From assembly GCA_023898625.1 (NCBI GenBank), contig CP060231.1, positions 84,258 through 148,257 on the forward strand: a stretch of DNA of 64,000 nt, written 5' to 3'. A model generated the notes under the pieces. That model worked only from the letters and a program-made list of their open reading frames with translations. It was not told the DNA's origin and ran no database searches. Shown here piece by piece: positions 5,197 to 61,755 of the stretch. Position 1 is the first letter of the stretch; every line of letters begins with the position of its first letter. The position numbers and the translations under genes were made by a program. This DNA comes from Candidatus Nomurabacteria bacterium (GTDB lineage: Bacteria > Patescibacteriota > Saccharimonadia > Saccharimonadales > JAGQNJ01).

Positions 5197-5718
5197 CTAC
5201 AAAAACTCTGCAATTCTATCAAACAGTATCCCACAATCACCACTAGCAATTTCAAGCTGATTACCTGTGTTTTGTCGTAAAATCCTCTCTCCTCCCGCGA
5301 TTTGATCGAGCATGGTATCAGACTCTAATAAATCAATATCCATTGTTGGAGATGAAATTTTTGGACACGCCAAAATGCTGTGCCCAAATTCTACCAAATC
5401 ACCCTGCTCCTCTCTAAATACATAGCTATGATTCACCGAGGAATTCTCTGTTGTAGCATTGTGTGCTAGTTGCCTGTACTTTACTACCAAACTACTCCCC
5501 CACGATTGAGTTCTTATGATTCCATTTATACATAATGTAACCGGAGGCCATACTAAAAACTCAGTATCAATGTAAAGTTTCTCTGCACCAATATACAATG
5601 CATTTTGGTCGTTGGGCATCTGCTTTACGGTTGAATACTCAGAATAGCCAATCTCTACAAACGCTTCACGGAGAAGATTGTACTCTTCAATACTTGGTAA
5701 TTCTAAATCCGCTCTCAT
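5197..5718 (-). CDS. Hypothetical protein (third gene of the CYTH operon)
   Basis: 173 aa. Its ATG directly abuts the stop codon of the upstream CYTH gene (TAAATG). No recognisable motif. Confidence 0.5.
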   Translation of the reverse strand: MRADLELPSIEEYNLLREAFVEIGYSEYSTVKQMPNDQNALYIGAEKLYIDTEFLVWPPVTLCINGIIRTQSWGSSLVVKYRQLAHNATTENSSVNHSYVFREEQGDLVEFGHSILACPKISSPTMDIDLLESDTMLDQIAGGERILRQNTGNQLEIASGDCGILFDRIAEFL

Positions 5719-6333
5719 TTAATTATCTGATTCTCCGATAAGTTGCTTAGGTACTGGATCAGAAAACCGAACTTCTTTTAGATTCGTAATCTTAAAGTTT
5801 TTTTGTATATTGGGATACTGCTTTCTGTAAACCGGCATTATACCGCCAAACAATGCTTGTTCCCAATCAAAGCCTAATAATTTTGCCACTTTCTTAACAG
5901 CCAATTCGTCTGCTTCTATCTCGATTAATGGATTTAGCCAAGGCCATATATCCAAAACAACCTCTGCACCCTCGAGACTCCACGTTTCACGTTTTGACTC
6001 TTGATAAGATAGCACCTTCATCCCAAGTAATGTAAAAAGTTCGATGCCTTTATCGAAATTATCTATTTCTACTTCTATCTCCTGTACTGAGTGTAAATTT
6101 AGTGGTCTTGATTTATCTATGCTCTTTAAAGTAGCAGTGATCTTGTTTCCTTCGTCGCGTAATCTTAAAAATTTATGGTCTTTGTGCAATATCAAATCTG
6201 GTGTATCCATGATTACACGCCTCATTTCTCGCATTGGAAATATACAATCAGCACCAACTTCTTTTAGTAGTCGACGAGTTTGTGTTAATTGAATATCGAC
6301 GAACTTCACCTCAACTTCAGTTTGCATAGCCAA
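5719..6333 (-). CDS. CYTH-domain protein (triphosphate tunnel metalloenzyme / class IV adenylate cyclase-like)
   Basis: 204 aa. N-terminal EVEVKF matches the ExExK signature of CYTH (CyaB/ThTPase). Later acidic and basic beta-strand residues (RLRDEG, EIEVEI, IEIE) fit the tunnel fold. Confidence 0.7.
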   Translation of the reverse strand: MAMQTEVEVKFVDIQLTQTRRLLKEVGADCIFPMREMRRVIMDTPDLILHKDHKFLRLRDEGNKITATLKSIDKSRPLNLHSVQEIEVEIDNFDKGIELFTLLGMKVLSYQESKRETWSLEGAEVVLDIWPWLNPLIEIEADELAVKKVAKLLGFDWEQALFGGIMPVYRKQYPNIQKNFKITNLKEVRFSDPVPKQLIGESDN

Positions 6334-18085: not shown

Positions 18086-18726
18086 TTAATCATGAAGTAA
18101 AGCCTGACCATATGGGCCAGTGTATAACTCATTGGTACTGTCAATGTATGTATTGATGGTGTCAGTTTGATTTAGGTTTTCACCCTTTGAATATGGGACA
18201 TAGCCATTTATCATAAATCCACCACTTTCCCGTATTCTATCGCGCGATTCTACTAGTTGATCAAAATCTTCTTGACCCTCATTATCAAATTCAGACCGAT
18301 ATAATAAACCAATAGCTCTAGCGGTTCTGCCATTACCATCACAAAATGGATGTAATATTACGGTTGCAAGCGCCAATGCATCACCAACCGTGCTGGATTA
18401 ATCCCCTGCTGTGAATTATGAATCTTTTCTATAACATTTGAAAAAATTTGATAACGATCTTCAGGATTAACTGTTTCTTTTTCGCCAATCTTCATAGTTT
18501 GATCATGTATCATTGTAGATTCAGTACCCGTCAACCCTCTATTTAAATCAGATATAAATAATGCTATGTTTTCTTTAGATGATGAACTCAATGCATTTAA
18601 CCGTACTTCTGGAGAGTCACCCGACAACTCATAATTATTCAGCATTTCTTGAAAATCGTTAAACGAAAGTGTTTTGCTCTTTTCTTCAGCTTCCTGATTT
18701 TGTGGAATTTGGTCTATTTCTGACAT
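18086..18726 (-). pseudogene. Fic/DOC-family protein gene split by a frameshift
   Basis: Two overlapping ORFs (18358-18726 and 18086-18376). The downstream one carries the Fic motif HPFCDGNGRTARA. Re-reading across about 18377-18397 with a 1-nt shift joins ...GINPARLV to GDALALATVILHPFCDGNGR. Confidence 0.7.
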
Positions 18727-55976: not shown

Positions 55977-56842
55977 CCAATTAACTCTGTGGTTATTCGC
56001 TTCAAGTCATCGTCATCTTTAAAATAAACTTCAAGTTTTCCACCCTTGGCTGTTCGTCTAATATTAATAGACGTGTTGAGCCTTTTTGCTAAAGCTTCTG
56101 TTTGAGTGTTAGTAGTTGCCATATGTTCTTTAACTTTTTTGGTTGATTTCTTTTCTTCCTGACGACTAGCCGTAACGAATTGTTCGGCCTGGCGAACCGA
56201 CCAACCAAATTTTAAAACCGACTCTAATAAGTCTGCTTGCTTTTGTGAGTCTTCCTTCAATGCCAGGATGGCTCGTGCATGACCTTCAGAAATCTGTCCA
56301 TTTTTTAACGCCTGCATAGCTGATTTTGGCAACTGCAAAAGTCTGACTGTGTTGTGGATAGTCGGAACTGCCTTGCCAAGTTTTTTCGCAATTTCTGCAT
56401 AGCTGAGATTGAATTGATCATGTAGTCTCTCTATCGACTGTGCCTGTTCAAGTGGTGAGAGGTCGACTCTTTGAACATTTTCAATTATTGCCACTTCTAG
56501 CTCTTCGATTAGTTTTAAGGATCTGACGACTGCAGGCACTTCTTTTAGTCCAGCAATCTTAGCAGAACGCCAACGTCTTTCGCCGGCAATAATACGATAA
56601 TCATCGTTATATTTCGTTACAATTAACGGTTGCACGATTCCATGATTCTTAATCGATTTTGCTAGCTCATTAAGGGCTTCTTCTTCGAAATGCTTCCTGG
56701 GTTGTTCAGGATTTGGTATTACTTTATTAATCGGCAAATTTTGTACACGTTCGTTATTCTCTAAAATTGAAGAGTCGAACTCTTCTGGAATCAATGCGTC
56801 GAGCCCTCTGCCAAGCCCAGTTTTACCTGACATTTTGATCAA
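55973..56842 (-). CDS. parB: Chromosome partitioning protein ParB/Spo0J
   Basis: 289 aa. IIAGERRWRSA ParB box and an HTH region. Confidence 0.93.
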   Translation of the reverse strand: MIKMSGKTGLGRGLDALIPEEFDSSILENNERVQNLPINKVIPNPEQPRKHFEEEALNELAKSIKNHGIVQPLIVTKYNDDYRIIAGERRWRSAKIAGLKEVPAVVRSLKLIEELEVAIIENVQRVDLSPLEQAQSIERLHDQFNLSYAEIAKKLGKAVPTIHNTVRLLQLPKSAMQALKNGQISEGHARAILALKEDSQKQADLLESVLKFGWSVRQAEQFVTASRQEEKKSTKKVKEHMATTNTQTEALAKRLNTSINIRRTAKGGKLEVYFKDDDDLKRITTELIG

Positions 56843-57620
56843 TCTCCTTTGCTAATGCTTTATATGCCCTTGCCCCCCTGGACCACTTATCGTGAGCCAG
56901 TATTGTCTTTCCATGACTTGGAGCTTCAGCTAATCTAACATTTCTAGGAACAACGGTTTTGAATAGTTTTTGTTTGAAATGTTTTTGAAGCTCTTTGTAA
57001 ACACTTTCTGATAAAGAGGTTCGACTATCATACATCGTAACTACTACACCCAACAAATTTAAGTCTGGATTAAGCCCTTTGCGCACTCTTTGAATTGTCC
57101 CTAATAACTGGGTCAAACCCTCTAGGGCATAATACTCAGCTTGTACTGGAATAATTACATAATCTGAGGCTGTTAACGCATTGATGCTCAATAAACCTAG
57201 CGAAGGTGGACAGTCAATTAAAACATAATCGTGAGACGCATGTGCCAGGCTTTGACGTAAACGACTTTCTCTATCTGGTTGAGAAACTAACTCAACCTCG
57301 GATGCAGCCAGGTTCGCATTTGCTGGCACTAAAGAAATATTTGATTCGTCTAAATCTATTATCACCTCGCTCAAGTTTGCCCGCCCTAATAATACATCGT
57401 AAGTTGTTGAATCAAAATTTCCTTGCTGACCAAGCCCACTGGTTGCATTACCTTGAGGATCTAGGTCAACCACCAAAACCGAGCGACCCATTTTGGCTAA
57501 ATATGCACCAATATTTATAGTGCTAGTCGTTTTGCCAACACCCCCTTTTTGGTTCAAAATTGCAATTATATGTCTCATACCCTCATGCTTTTCACTCTTT
57601 AGAGTACCATTTTCACGCAA
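56823..57620 (-). CDS. parA: Chromosome partitioning ATPase ParA/Soj
   Basis: Deviant Walker A NQKGGVGKTT. The likely true start is MRHIIAILNQ at about 57578. Confidence 0.93.
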   Translation of the reverse strand: MRENGTLKSEKHEGMRHIIAILNQKGGVGKTTSTINIGAYLAKMGRSVLVVDLDPQGNATSGLGQQGNFDSTTYDVLLGRANLSEVIIDLDESNISLVPANANLAASEVELVSQPDRESRLRQSLAHASHDYVLIDCPPSLGLLSINALTASDYVIIPVQAEYYALEGLTQLLGTIQRVRKGLNPDLNLLGVVVTMYDSRTSLSESVYKELQKHFKQKLFKTVVPRNVRLAEAPSHGKTILAHDKWSRGARAYKALAKEIDQNVR

Positions 57621-57664
57621 TTATCTCAATATAGAAATTAAAATATACGGTTCTTAATACCGTT

Positions 57665-57840
57665 AAGAGTCAGCGAACCCCAATACCGTTAGCCCGATTG
57701 TCGTTGTTGCCAGGATTAACGTTGTCAGAATTGAAGTTCGCGTTGAAAGCGTTATCCGCAGTATCCGGGAAAGCCGAACTTGACCACAGGTTGCCGTTGT
57801 CGCCCTGGTCGTCGAAGCCCTCATTCCAGTTGCCAGCAAA
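57665..57840 (-). repeat. DGR template repeat (TR), non-coding, Asn-codon (AAC)-rich
   Basis: A 176-bp ungapped match to 59301-59476. All 28 mismatches are at plus-strand T in this copy (A on the minus/coding strand), and 14 other such positions are unchanged. It contains an in-frame TGA where the VR has TGT. Confidence 0.92.
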
Positions 57841-57880
57841 CAGCAACCAGCCACTGCGCACTAGCAATACTACTCGTTAC

Positions 57881-57906
57881 CCTATACTCAGCATACTGAG
57901 TATAGG
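57881..57906 (-). other. Perfect 11-bp-stem/4-nt-loop hairpin between the RT stop and TR (candidate DGR RNA structural element)
   Basis: cctatactcag-cata-ctgagtatagg, read directly. It lies about 40 nt 5' of TR in transcript orientation. Confidence 0.5.
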
Positions 57907-58041
57907 CGGACCTTGGCGGCACCATCCGTAAAGAACTAGCCTCAACAAATTAAGACCAGTGAGCATTGTCTCTTACTTATGCTTATATATCTGACTGTTA
58001 ATCGGACAACGAGATATAATTACCACCAAGCACCGCCCGCC

Positions 58042-59175
58042 TTAAGCCAGCCCAAGCATACTTTTATTGTACCCCCCCCCCCGAAGTTTCATACCACTGA
58101 GAAGTCTTTTGTATTTATAATGCTTGACTAGCCCTCGATACGAAGCCTCTGTTTCTTTTGAACAATCAGGGTTTGAGAGGGCCAAGAGCAGGTTACGTTT
58201 TAAGCGTTTGCCCGGATGCAATCGAAATGGGTAGATGGCTGCACCGAGAAAGGCCACGCCACGATTGTGTTCCTGCAAATGCCGTTTATGTGGATGCAGT
58301 AGCAAGTCTAAATGCTGGCTCACATAGTTTTCTATTGTCTTGGTAACTTTAACTAACTCGTTTTTATTACTAGAGACAATATAAAAATCATCAACGTAGC
58401 GCCCATAATGCTTAAAGCCTAGATCAAATGTCACAAATCTATCTAATTGATCCAGATAGATATTACTAAGTAGCTGAGAAGTCAGATTACCAATAGCAAT
58501 CCCTCGCCCTTTGGGCTGATGAAACAGGCTTTTGCTGGGTGGTAAACCACGCCAAGCACTTCGAGGGCAATTAAATATTGCATTTTTTATTGGATCATTA
58601 AAAATAATCACCTTCCATAGATATTTACAAACTTGGTAGGCGTGTCCTTGGTTTGGGTATTGCCTGTCTAGCCCCCACATCGCCCGTGTATAGAGTTTTT
58701 TACGGTCTAAGCTCATAAAATATCCTAGTAAATCTAGCTTAAGTACATAGGCAGGGCGAGTATAATTTAGGCTAACAGAACGAATATGATGGTCAAGCCG
58801 ACGAATACCATAAAGTGTGCCCTTGCCTACTCGGCAACTATAATTATCTTCAATAAATCTTGCATCCCACCAACTATTTACTTGGTTGAACAAAAAGTGA
58901 TGAACAACTCTATCACGGAAGTTAGCTGCAAAAATCTCTCGTTTGACAGGCTTGTTTACAATAAAGGCTGTTGATGGGCGTGGGGCGTAACTACGTGTGT
59001 CAATTTCATGGGCAAGTGCCGATATTTCAGCTTTGGCGATTTTTGTAAAAGCAATTACTTCGGCTTTATTAGATTTGCCAATCTTAGCACGCTGATAGGC
59101 TTTATTGAGCTCTTTTACTAGCCATTCTTTGCGAATATCTGAAGCCTTAGTGGTTGCTGGAGTATCTTTAGCCAT
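58042..59175 (-). CDS. Diversity-generating retroelement reverse transcriptase
   Basis: 377 aa. RT motifs include YVDDF (motif 5). The DGR-diagnostic motif-4 sequence is IGNLTSQLLSNIYLDQLD ([I/L]GxxxSQ). TR and VR flank the gene. Confidence 0.92.
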   Translation of the reverse strand: MAKDTPATTKASDIRKEWLVKELNKAYQRAKIGKSNKAEVIAFTKIAKAEISALAHEIDTRSYAPRPSTAFIVNKPVKREIFAANFRDRVVHHFLFNQVNSWWDARFIEDNYSCRVGKGTLYGIRRLDHHIRSVSLNYTRPAYVLKLDLLGYFMSLDRKKLYTRAMWGLDRQYPNQGHAYQVCKYLWKVIIFNDPIKNAIFNCPRSAWRGLPPSKSLFHQPKGRGIAIGNLTSQLLSNIYLDQLDRFVTFDLGFKHYGRYVDDFYIVSSNKNELVKVTKTIENYVSQHLDLLLHPHKRHLQEHNRGVAFLGAAIYPFRLHPGKRLKRNLLLALSNPDCSKETEASYRGLVKHYKYKRLLSGMKLRGGGYNKSMLGLA

Positions 59176-59234
59176 GCTGTATTTCTATTGTCTGATGGGG
59201 GATAATTCTAGTGTAAAATATGGCCAGTCGACTC

Positions 59235-59266
59235 GGCGGGGTTAGGGGTGGTCACCCCTAACCGCC
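59235..59266 (-). other. GC-rich hairpin/cruciform just downstream of VR (candidate DGR target-recognition element)
   Basis: ggc-(gg bulge)-ggttaggggt-ggtc-acccctaacc-gcc, a 13-bp stem with a 4-nt loop, 31-62 nt past the target stop codon. It is nested in a second inverted repeat: aaatatggcca (59217-59227) / tggccatattt (59280-59290). Confidence 0.55.
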
Positions 59267-59296
59267 ATGCCTCGCTTTGTGGCCATATTTAATTTT

Positions 59297-61015
59297 TTAC
59301 AAGAGACAGCGAACCCCAATACCGAAAGCCCGATCGACGACGTGGCCAGGAAGAACGAAGCCAGAAAAGAAGACCGCGAGGAAAGCGTTATCCGCAGTAT
59401 CCGGGAAAGCCGAACTTGACCACAGGCCGCCGCCGCCGCCCTGGTCGCCGAAGCCCCCATTCCAGAGGCCAGCAAATTGTCCTTTAAATGGGCCGTTAGG
59501 TTGCCAGTTTTGGTAATGTTCCCCGTAATTGCTTAAGTAGGTGGGGTCTTGGCCATTTGGGAAACCTGCCATTTTAGCGCTTAGTTCGTTGAATTCGTTG
59601 GTTGAGAGGGGTATGCCTGTGTTAGTATCTATTCCACCGATTGGTAGTCTCCAGTTTTTAGGGCAGATGGAGTGTGGGGCATTGCCGGCATTCTCATCGT
59701 GGGAGGTCCTGGATTCTCCTGCGGTTACAGCTGGCCAATTGTAGAGGTTGCCGTAGTCATCTGAGTTAGTTACTTCGGCGGTAGAAATACCGGGTCCATC
59801 GTTTTGGACTAAGTTAGATGTGTCTATAGTGATGTTCCAGCTGTTATCTAGGGTTGACCAGGTAAATGCAGTGGTACCGTTGCCATCAAGTTGGCTAGAA
59901 CGGCTGGTGGTTACGGTTTGGCCTACGGCTGTAGTTAGGGCTGTAGCTACTGTATCGCCGTCAACATCATACGGAAATGGGCCAACGGTGGTAGAGATTG
60001 GAGTGGATATATTTAGGCTCCAGGTGCCACTGGTTGAATGTTCCCAGCCACTTGTGACTCTGAGTGCGGTTGGTATGTTGTAGGCTTCTGGGGTGTCGAA
60101 GCTAGCGTGTGATGAGTCAGAGCCAGAGTAGAGTTGTGGCAGGGTGAAGTTACTAGTTATGTCTGTGTCTTGGGGTGTAAGTAGAGTTGTACCTGAATTT
60201 GAACCTAGTTTTAGGTTGTTGAGCATCCAACAGTTGTTGTCGGCTAGTTTGGCTACTTGGTAGGTTTGGTTGTCTCCCCTAGCGTCTGTTAGGGTTAGGA
60301 TAGCTTCGTTGTTAGAGCCATCATAGATTGTCATGTTATCTTGGCAATAGGATGATGTTAGCTCTTGCATGGTGGTTGGAGCTGGTGGAATTATTGATGG
60401 GTTGTCGGTAGCATTATAGGTTAGTTGTAATTGTTTGGTGCCAGCTGTTACTGTGTCGTCTATGGTGAAGTATAGGGTGGCTTCTGTTGTGTCATTACTG
60501 GTTGCTGAACTGGTGGTTTTTAGAGTTAGCGGAGTGGCGTTTGGAACTAGGGTGGTATTGGTGGCTATTTCTCCGCCTTTTATGCCAATAGCTATGCCTG
60601 GTTCAGTTGATTGGAGTTGGGCGGTTAGGGTGTACCCACTTGAGTTGACTGTGCCGGTGGTTAGGTTTGTGGTGGAGTTTACCGATCCGCCACCATTAGG
60701 GATAGTTACATTAATGTTGTTTTGGCCGGTGCCAAGAGTTAGGGTTGGGGTGGCTTGGGCAAAGTGAGAGTTAATAGTTAGGCCAACTACGGCTAATGAA
60801 AGAGCCAAGAAAACACCTAAACTACGAGTTTTTAGTTTATAACGAGAGCCTAAACGGCGAGAAGTTAAGTACCAAGTAAGTAAGCTTAGGGTAATTAAAA
60901 TAATGGCAATGATTGGTAGTAGTTTGATTTGCGAGCCAGTATTAGCTAAGTTTCCGTTAGCTGGGGTATTGCCTACTACTATATTAAGAGTTTGAGTTAT
61001 GGTTTGATTTTGCAT
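59297..61015 (-). CDS. DGR target protein: secreted Thr/Asn-rich beta-rich region + C-terminal FISUMP-like (Fibrobacter succinogenes major paralogous domain) C-type-lectin-fold domain carrying the VR
   Basis: 572 aa. Internal Sec signal-like segment KLKTRSLGVFLALSLAVVGLTINSHFAQA. FISUMP-like landmarks are CWMLNNLKLGS, LYNWPAV, CPKNWRLP, GLWSSSA and GIGVRC. The last ~58 codons are the VR. Confidence 0.85.
   Translation of the reverse strand: MQNQTITQTLNIVVGNTPANGNLANTGSQIKLLPIIAIILITLSLLTWYLTSRRLGSRYKLKTRSLGVFLALSLAVVGLTINSHFAQATPTLTLGTGQNNINVTIPNGGGSVNSTTNLTTGTVNSSGYTLTAQLQSTEPGIAIGIKGGEIATNTTLVPNATPLTLKTTSSATSNDTTEATLYFTIDDTVTAGTKQLQLTYNATDNPSIIPPAPTTMQELTSSYCQDNMTIYDGSNNEAILTLTDARGDNQTYQVAKLADNNCWMLNNLKLGSNSGTTLLTPQDTDITSNFTLPQLYSGSDSSHASFDTPEAYNIPTALRVTSGWEHSTSGTWSLNISTPISTTVGPFPYDVDGDTVATALTTAVGQTVTTSRSSQLDGNGTTAFTWSTLDNSWNITIDTSNLVQNDGPGISTAEVTNSDDYGNLYNWPAVTAGESRTSHDENAGNAPHSICPKNWRLPIGGIDTNTGIPLSTNEFNELSAKMAGFPNGQDPTYLSNYGEHYQNWQPNGPFKGQFAGLWNGGFGDQGGGGGLWSSSAFPDTADNAFLAVFFSGFVLPGHVVDRAFGIGVRCLL
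59301..59476 (-). repeat. DGR variable repeat (VR) at the 3' end of the target gene
   Basis: The counterpart of TR. 18 codons differ, mostly TR Asn/Asp/Glu codons changed to L, V, F, G, H or D. Confidence 0.92.
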
Positions 61016-61105: not shown

Positions 61106-61234
61106 ACAGCTATTACAGCTATTACAGCTATTACAGCTATTACAGCTATTACAGCTATTACAGCTATTACAGCTATTACAGCTATTACAGCTATTACAGC
61201 TATTACAGCTATTACAGCTATTACAGCTATTACA
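61106..61234. repeat. Perfect 9-bp tandem repeat (acagctatt) x 14.3 in the region upstream of the DGR target gene
   Basis: Counted manually: units start at 61106 + 9k for k = 0..13, then a partial aca. The array ends about 90 bp upstream of the target ATG (61015). Confidence 0.95.
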
Positions 61235-61313: not shown

Positions 61314-61443
61314 ATAATTTTTCCTGGAACTCATCAGATGCCATTCTTTCATGGACAGTTTCATGCTCAGGTCTTTTATTCATATAGTTATCATTATACC
61401 ATATTCTAGACTTGTTTACAATAGACTATTAAATACAGTTTTT

Positions 61444-61755
61444 TTATTTGGCTGTTATTTTGTCAATTAAAAGTTTAGTCAAGATTTGGCGATGACCACG
61501 AACTTTCTTGACCCGTTTTTTAGCTTTATAGCGGATTGAGGTTACTTTATCGGCTTTAGTTTCTTCAACGATTTTTGCAGTAACTTTTGCACCATCAACT
61601 TCTGGTTGACCAATAATTGTCTTGTCTCCGTCTATAATTAATAGTGGTGTAAAGCTTATATTTGCCTTTTCATTTTTAATACGCTCTACTTCTAGAGTTT
61701 CGCCTTCAGTTACGATATATTGTTTGCCGCCGGTGGCGATTACTGCTTTTTTCAT
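61444..61755 (-). CDS. rplU: 50S ribosomal protein L21
   Basis: 103 aa. AVIATGGKQYIVTEGETLEVE signature. Confidence 0.95.
   Translation of the reverse strand: MKKAVIATGGKQYIVTEGETLEVERIKNEKANISFTPLLIIDGDKTIIGQPEVDGAKVTAKIVEETKADKVTSIRYKAKKRVKKVRGHRQILTKLLIDKITAK

Follow-up and report, generated by a model that had tools for sequence, protein, structure and literature searches.

We analysed a 64-kb stretch of DNA from Candidatus Nomurabacteria bacterium (CP060231.1, 84,258-148,257; hereafter the window, in whose numbering all coordinates are given) that carries a diversity-generating retroelement (DGR). A target gene ending in a variable repeat (VR), a reverse transcriptase (RT) gene, a structured RNA of ~245 nt and a template repeat (TR) are co-directional within ~3.4 kb, and all parts of this cassette lie on the minus strand. 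In our judgement the cassette is likely to be an active chromosomal DGR of a Saccharibacteria (TM7) bacterium, belonging to the catalogued RT-TR type that has no accessory gene. We further propose, tentatively and at less than an even chance, that the DGRs of this Saccharibacteria lineage use a circularly permuted, retron-like RNA, and that in the window's clade, which would have lost an MSL-Avd accessory gene recently and cleanly, RNA and RT suffice for mutagenic retrohoming. If this proposal is true, the window's clade represents a natural minimal two-component DGR.

The sole mechanistic and structural model of cDNA synthesis in DGRs, that of Bordetella, needs both Avd and a spacer RNA located 3' of the TR. 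The window's clade provides a clean natural comparison, being active and compact and having close relatives with an MSL-Avd fusion.

Template-directed variation in the window and its relatives

The TR (57665-57840) and the VR (59301-59476) form a direct repeat of 176 nt that aligns without gaps and is 84% identical. We identify the 57665-57840 copy as the TR because every difference between the two, 28 in 176 positions, falls on one of its adenines (28/28). The VR is altered at 28 of the 42 TR adenines, to T in 13 cases, to G in 11 and to C in 4. This adenine pattern lies beyond chance and cannot be chance. The VR, the only partner of the TR in the window, occupies the 3' end of a 572-aa target gene (59297-61015) and ends 2 nt short of its stop codon. 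The target protein gave weak matches only, to FISUMP/Fib_succ_major, and the TR-derived frame matched Lcl_C weakly; the relatives have homologous target genes upstream of the RT.

Both repeats share a G/C-rich invariant end, GGTATTGGGGTTCGCTG, resembling an initiation of mutagenic homing (IMH) sequence. Just 3' of the VR we found a strong hairpin (59216-59290) with the core GGCGGTTAGGGGTG-ACCA-CCCCTAACCCCGCC at 59235-59266. Its DNA fold reaches -23 kcal/mol with a z-score of -6.09, and none of 200 shuffled sequences was equally stable. The hairpin occupies the position of the known target-recognition hairpin of DGRs and may serve the same role, which we presume by transfer from the Bordetella system.

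As a separate observation, the target proteins of the clade start with NLA[ND]TG, followed by a hydrophobic stretch and basic residues (60850-61015 in the window). This start looks like a sortase sorting signal, yet it is situated near the N-terminus. A sortase gene is present in the window at 1422-2042.

The RT (58042-59175) is an intact open reading frame (ORF) of 377 aa that matches Pfam RVT_1 at 6e-10. RTs of the DGR clade are defined by the motifs [LIV]GxxxSQ and YxDD, and the translation carries IAIGNLTSQ and the catalytic YVDD. The closest solved structure is the Bordetella enzyme bRT (8ub7, E 6.3e-28), and matches to the NCBIfam retron and DRT models fall far below their cut-offs. Among more than 6000 homologues, the named ones come from Saccharibacteria/Patescibacteria.

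In scans of genomes and metagenomes we retrieved 22 loci whose RTs belong to the clade of the window's RT (68-98% identity). Every part is present in 14 of them (12 distinct), in the order VR, 89-177 nt, RT, 172-238 nt, TR on a single strand; the corresponding distances in the window are 121 nt from target stop to RT start and 201 nt from RT stop to TR. The survey of related genomes suggested in the preliminary description of this DNA thus finds the VR-RT-TR synteny kept in a monophyletic Saccharibacteria clade. Exceptions are L004, in which a toxin-antitoxin insertion widens the VR-RT gap to 777 nt, and L092, with a truncated RT ORF. The L004 insertion (5343-5911) consists of a RelB-like antitoxin and a YafQ/ParE-like toxin; the DGR around it is otherwise intact, with 27 of 32 TR/VR differences at adenines. 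The genes flanking the cassette vary between loci.

The adenine-directed pattern of TR/VR differences is also present in 13 related loci. We compared the VRs of the closest pairs. L006 and L084 have identical TRs and not a single mismatch in the 300 nt upstream and 400 nt downstream of the VR, while their VRs differ at 22 positions, 21 of them TR-adenine sites. L087 and L089 likewise have identical TRs and nearly identical flanks, with 16 of 17 VR differences at such sites. The window and its near-identical relative L008 (flanks 95.5-97% identical) differ at 26 VR positions, of which 24 are TR-adenine sites. Because relatives with identical TR and flanks differ in the VR almost only at TR-adenine sites, these comparisons indicate that the VR continues to change in nature within the clade and that the element is active.

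The arrangement itself is not new. The preliminary description had called it non-canonical. A survey by Wu et al. 2018 (Nucleic Acids Res 46:11, PMC5758913), which found avd in 74% of DGRs, lists accessory-less elements at 29% and places 75 of 372 DGRs, all without an accessory gene, in an Architecture A with the cores TR-RT (A1) and RT-TR (A2). The accessory-less VR-RT-TR layout is therefore already catalogued, as A2. The main text of that paper gives no RNA model for accessory-less elements.

The RNA between reverse transcriptase and template repeat

In 16 distinct loci the stretch that separates RT and TR is conserved, beginning with the G-tract/GTACAATAA (~58086) and running as far as the TR. 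The alignment indicates that this apparent spacer is a conserved multi-helix RNA of ~245 nt (57841-58086) whose 5' part extends over the final ~45 nt of the RT gene. Including its pairing to the 3' end of the TR, the element has 8 helices and 56 pairs. In the helices 95.6% of the alignment cells are paired, as against 31-47% when the partners are slid, and 30 pairs show compensatory changes; none of 500 shuffles reached the observed values. The helices include a pseudoknot-type one of 9 bp (58022-58030 with 57912-57920, 6 covarying pairs) and helix H4 (57961-57968 with 57865-57873), which closes a three-way junction. The covariance model R1 built on the element found it in the window and in 20 clade loci, always at this position, and gave no further hit in 0.9 Mb. 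Rfam returned no family match to the element or elsewhere in the window.

The conserved region begins at a G11 homopolymer close to the 3' end of the RT gene (58072-58082). The length of this tract varies from 4 to 11 among the relatives, altering the C-terminal tail of the RT and moving its stop codon by tens of nucleotides, and the nucleotides around it are conserved as RNA rather than as protein. Between L006 and L084 the tract changes from G10 to G11, with the 5' RNA element, TR and VR flanks identical.

Helix H0 connects the element to the end of the TR. Its 5' strand, AGTAAGAG (57970-57977), lies just 5' of H4 with the unpaired A57969 between the two, and is the candidate primer-like strand; its 3' strand, CTCTTAAC (57662-57669), spans the end of TR/VR homology. 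The 8 pairs of H0 include 5 invariant ones. Covariation is seen at a position just beyond the TR/VR homology (C-G, G-C or U-A) and at another two nt beyond it, where U-A is replaced by C-G in L007. On the other side of the TR, nothing beyond GACTCTTA is conserved among the 12 distinct clade loci. A weak terminator-like hairpin with a T-rich tail follows the TR directly (57647-57663); it comes from a consensus scan only and is not conserved in the relatives. The preliminary description had predicted an RNA geometry unlike that of Bordetella, and this is what we observe: the covarying RNA lies 5' of the TR and pairs with the TR 3' end.

In the literature we found no description of a covarying RNA located 5' of the TR and pairing with its end; full-text searches combining DGR and Avd with Saccharibacteria/Patescibacteria gave no match. 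The elements surveyed by Handa et al. (bioRxiv 10.1101/2023.10.23.563531) were all downstream of the TR and all in Avd-bearing DGRs.

We also looked for pairing with the TR 3' end in sister Saccharibacteria loci that bear an MSL-Avd fusion, scoring it as a count of the longest perfect complements. A perfect 9-12-nt complement to the locus's own TR 3' end stands 90-210 nt upstream of the TR in 8 of the 22 loci, and a comparable one stands downstream in 1 of 22. RNAduplex energies between the TR 3' end and its flanks were noisy and did not recover the H0 of the window's clade. R1 found no homologue of the 5' element in the sister clades, and an all-against-all blastn of the sister upstream regions linked four pairs only, making a cross-clade RNA alignment impossible. 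The complements of L013, L016, L021 and L064 span the end of TR/VR homology, and in L013, L016 and L021 the paired template strand has an adenine immediately on its 5' side, which is also the case in the window.

The RNA geometry is not peculiar to elements that lost Avd, because loci that carry the fusion also pair upstream of the TR. The preliminary description had named the different geometry alongside an absent or unlinked accessory protein; the geometry stands, a tie to the loss of Avd does not. We accordingly rejected the idea that permutation of the RNA caused the loss of Avd.

Accessory gene loss, mechanism and alternatives

The list of ORFs contains no Avd, MSL or other accessory ORF in the cassette. 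We searched the window and 21 clade loci, translated in six frames, with hidden Markov models (HMMs) of the MSL-Avd fusion, of canonical Avd and of the MSL domain. The models gave nothing below E ~0.75 there and retrieved L093, a control from outside the clade. A Pfam search of 20 window ORFs of 90-234 aa revealed no Avd-like family. Outside the cassette, no ORF within ~5-6 kb is conserved across 13 loci, the maximum being 5 of the 13. Single-sequence hhalign of 21 window ORFs against Avd and accessory profiles was negative throughout, but its positive control failed too and it adds little. Together, the ORF list, HMMs and Pfam bear out the earlier statement that the VR-RT-TR order has no Avd-like gene in or next to it.

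Other Saccharibacteria loci present a different picture, with 57 full-length accessory ORFs of 265-380 aa directly upstream of the RT. The C-terminal 100 residues of their profile match an alignment of canonical Avd from Bacteroidetes (hhalign 93.5%, E 2e-7), whose members are themselves supported by NCBIfam DivGenRetAVD at 1e-12 to 1e-17. The N-terminal part resembles, by motif only, a separate protein of ~170-215 aa that precedes Avd in Bacteroidetes and is fused to it in L041 and L080. This protein looks like the MutS-like MSL of Wu et al./Macadangdang et al., an identity that profile comparison did not confirm. Accessory proteins of 230-380 aa with an apparent MSL-type N-domain and a C-terminal Avd are found, for example, in L013 (5135-5950), L021 (5154-5963), L041 (1564-2340) and L080 (4523-5218), and in several Bacteroidetes loci the MSL-like and Avd parts are separate adjacent genes.

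Wherever an accessory gene was found, it belongs to the cassette: this is the case in all 68 related loci in which we detected one, directly upstream of the RT in 58 and between VR and RT in 10. The order of the other parts is less constant. In most sister Saccharibacteria DGRs (L009-L076, e.g. L013 4812-7408) the TR lies on the strand opposite to the RT and converges on its stop codon, and in other loci an inverted TR and VR come after the RT; throughout these arrangements the accessory gene keeps its place directly upstream of the RT.

We built a neighbour-joining tree from 92 RTs. The accessory-less loci form a monophyletic clade of 20 tips, its sister being the 59-tip clade with the fusion, and the Avd-bearing Bacteroidetes fall outside both Saccharibacteria clades. 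Since the sister clades carry MSL-Avd directly upstream of the RT and the accessory-less clade is monophyletic, the parsimonious reading is that the window's clade most likely lost the accessory gene.

Based on these results, we propose the following mechanism. A transcript spanning the 3' end of the RT gene, the RNA element and the TR would fold with the TR looped out. H0 would hold the 3' end of the TR beside the structured element, with H4 one nucleotide away. The RT would bind the element, and synthesis of the cDNA would begin at the adenine that borders the H0 duplex on its 5' side. The arrangement suggests cis-priming, probably from A57969 or G57970; it is from this arrangement that we infer a priming role for the AGTAAGAG strand. 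The first templated base would then be the TR adenine next to H0, a base that is mutated in the VR. The adenine-mutagenized cDNA would replace the VR, with the G/C-rich end of the repeat and the hairpin that follows the VR as guides. Contacts of the RNA with itself and with the RT, or else an unlinked host factor, would take over the positioning that Avd performs in Bordetella.

Several points weigh against our overall reading of the cassette. Only 2 of the 8 H0 pairs covary, and 5 of the 16 sequences are unpaired at one flanking position. The RT tree was rooted at its midpoint and has no support values. Avd is poorly conserved and single-sequence profile comparison is insensitive to it, and the accessory search spanned the 64 kb of the window and, in 13 relatives, ~5-6 kb to either side of the RT, which leaves room for an unlinked factor. 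Finally, bRT without Avd is inactive in vitro (Handa et al., bioRxiv 10.1101/2023.10.23.563531).

The reach of the accessory search and the inactivity of bRT alone also favour the strongest alternative, namely that the element still relies on a trans-acting accessory protein, Avd-like or of another kind, whose gene lies elsewhere in the genome. In the same direction, the alignment of the RT with bRT begins at bRT residue 17, so that the N-terminal extension contacting Avd in bRT is kept, and the sister clades with the same upstream RNA pairing retain their MSL-Avd fusion. Against it stand the blank results that all three accessory HMMs gave for the window and for 21 clade loci, the lack of a conserved neighbouring ORF and the constant location of the accessory gene inside the cassette in the 68 loci described above. 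Moreover, Wu et al. (PMC5758913) searched avd-less genomes with profiles for an unlinked avd, found none and judged Avd-independent homing likely. On balance we consider a trans-acting factor unlikely, though it deserves serious attention. The preliminary description had proposed the element as a test case for Avd-independent retrohoming. The part that stands is an active element without a nearby accessory gene; Avd-independence is something that we infer, and that Wu et al. (PMC5758913) had already proposed for accessory-less DGRs.

It is improbable, in our estimate, that the RNA is a 3' untranslated region of the RT gene, a regulatory element or a processing signal with no part in priming, and that its complementarity to the TR end is incidental. 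This explanation gains from the 5 invariant pairs of H0, which are uninformative, and from the fact that CTCTT is also under coding constraint in the VR. However, the element is always directly 5' of the TR in the window and 20 related loci, H0 covaries at two positions, and the unrelated sequences of the sister clades show their 9-12-nt perfect complements to the TR 3' end upstream and not downstream. The sequence of primer strand, short gap and second helix also mirrors the Bordetella ribonucleoprotein.

A small or unconventional accessory ORF hidden in the cassette, in an overlapping frame, with a non-standard start or as a spacer peptide, is more improbable still. Several alternative-frame ORFs of 45-110 aa are indeed conserved across loci, but all of them overlap the TR, VR, RT or target gene, and the nucleotide conservation of those parts explains them; the check for a conserved small accessory ORF raised in the preliminary description therefore returned none. 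In the interval between rplU and parA, all remaining ORFs of at least 40 aa are alternative-frame or antisense readings of the TR, VR, RT, target gene or a 9-bp tandem repeat. Pfam gave nothing significant for the five of these that we submitted, the sole match being Lcl_C (E 0.038) for a TR-derived ORF. With 121 and 201 nt the spacers leave too little room, the one between RT and TR covaries in the manner of RNA and not of codons, and the G-tract changes frame freely. That the cassette is an inactive remnant in which diversification ended with the loss of Avd can practically be set aside: it is favoured by the missing accessory gene and nothing further, whereas the RT ORF is intact with its catalytic motifs, the 42 TR adenines are preserved, otherwise identical relatives differ in their VRs at TR-adenine sites, and layout and RNA are under purifying selection across the clade.

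The proposal of a self-sufficient RNA and RT has practical consequences. The RNA model, supported by covariation, yields specific predictions that can be addressed by mutation, in H0, in H4 and at A57969. If RT and RNA suffice, they would offer a smaller chassis for targeted-mutagenesis tools and tie DGR priming to the RNA topology of retrons; otherwise, the clade is well suited to a search for the missing trans factor.

The cassette is embedded in chromosomal surroundings that include genes for ribosomal proteins, parAB and IleRS (ORFs and Pfam). Downstream of the TR lies parA (56823-57620, minus strand), which is listed with a TTG start and more likely begins at the ATG at 57578; the distance from the TR end is 44 nt to the former and 86 nt to the latter. 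On the opposite flank is rplU (61444-61755). The best promoter-like site 5' of the target gene, TTGTAA-17-TATAAT with TG (61393-61421, minus strand; 10/12 matches in a consensus scan), is a possible operon promoter. Between rplU and the target gene, a 9-bp unit, ACAGCTATT, occurs in fourteen perfect tandem copies (61106-61231) that are absent from the relatives checked. Because it is located downstream of the best promoter-like site, the array probably sits in the 5' leader of the operon. Far from the cassette, two adjacent ORFs on the minus strand (18086-18726), one of 96 aa with a Fic-motif fragment and one of 122 aa without a family match, resemble a Fic/Doc gene that has been split or frameshifted.

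Comparison with known systems

In gene layout the window cassette does not differ from Architecture A2: it has no avd, HRDC, MSL or CH1 gene, and the TR is downstream of the RT on one strand.

The sister MSL-Avd DGRs of Saccharibacteria, which are related to Architecture D of Wu et al. (PMC5758913), share with the window the RT lineage (~50% identity), similar target proteins and a complement to the TR 3' end upstream of the TR. Msl together with Avd also occurs in Bacteroides DGRs (bioRxiv 10.1101/2024.11.15.621889). The sister elements differ from the window in having their own accessory gene of 265-380 aa upstream of the RT and a TR that is usually on the strand opposite to the RT, and their upstream RNA has no detectable sequence homology to the element of the window's clade.

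Retron non-coding RNAs consist of msr and msd, are bounded by the a1/a2 inverted repeats and are primed from the 2'-OH of a branching nucleotide. The predicted RNA of the window's clade has the same order of parts: a 5' duplex strand, an unpaired nucleotide, stem-loops that in retrons are recognized by the RT, the template and a 3' complementary strand. It differs from retrons in that the RT belongs to the DGR clade and the template is a protein-coding repeat whose cDNA replaces the VR. Priming from a 2'-OH is a trait that DGRs and retrons share, according to Handa et al. (bioRxiv 10.1101/2023.10.23.563531).

The DGR of BPP-1 (mtd-avd-TR-Sp-brt; PDB 8ub7) is the prototype of the Bordetella-type Architecture B, which is defined by avd in the cassette and a conserved spacer RNA (Sp) 3' of the TR; the window cassette has neither. 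The two elements have in common a homologous RT, an adenine-specific flow from TR to VR and a hairpin after the VR. In both, a strand pairs with the TR 3' end and a second helix begins 1-2 nt further on; the partner strand of this helix sits immediately 5' of the TR, so that the TR is looped out. They differ in gene order and in the absence of avd from the window cassette, and the cis-acting RNA lies 3' of the TR in BPP-1 and 5' of it in the window. The Avd-binding stem-loop that comes after the TR in BPP-1 (Sp 3-33) has no conserved counterpart there in the window's clade.

In the Bordetella RNA the order is upstream strand, TR, TR 3' end (the template strand), Avd-binding stem-loop and then, continuing 3', a primer strand ending in A56, 2 nt, the strand of the second helix and RT-binding stem-loops (Handa et al., bioRxiv 10.1101/2023.10.23.563531). 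In the window's clade it is primer-like strand, 1 nt, H4 strand, stem-loops, H4 partner, linker, TR and template strand. The comparison suggests that the RNA of the window's clade may be the Bordetella set of contacts with the chain opened at another point, that is, a circular permutation of it.

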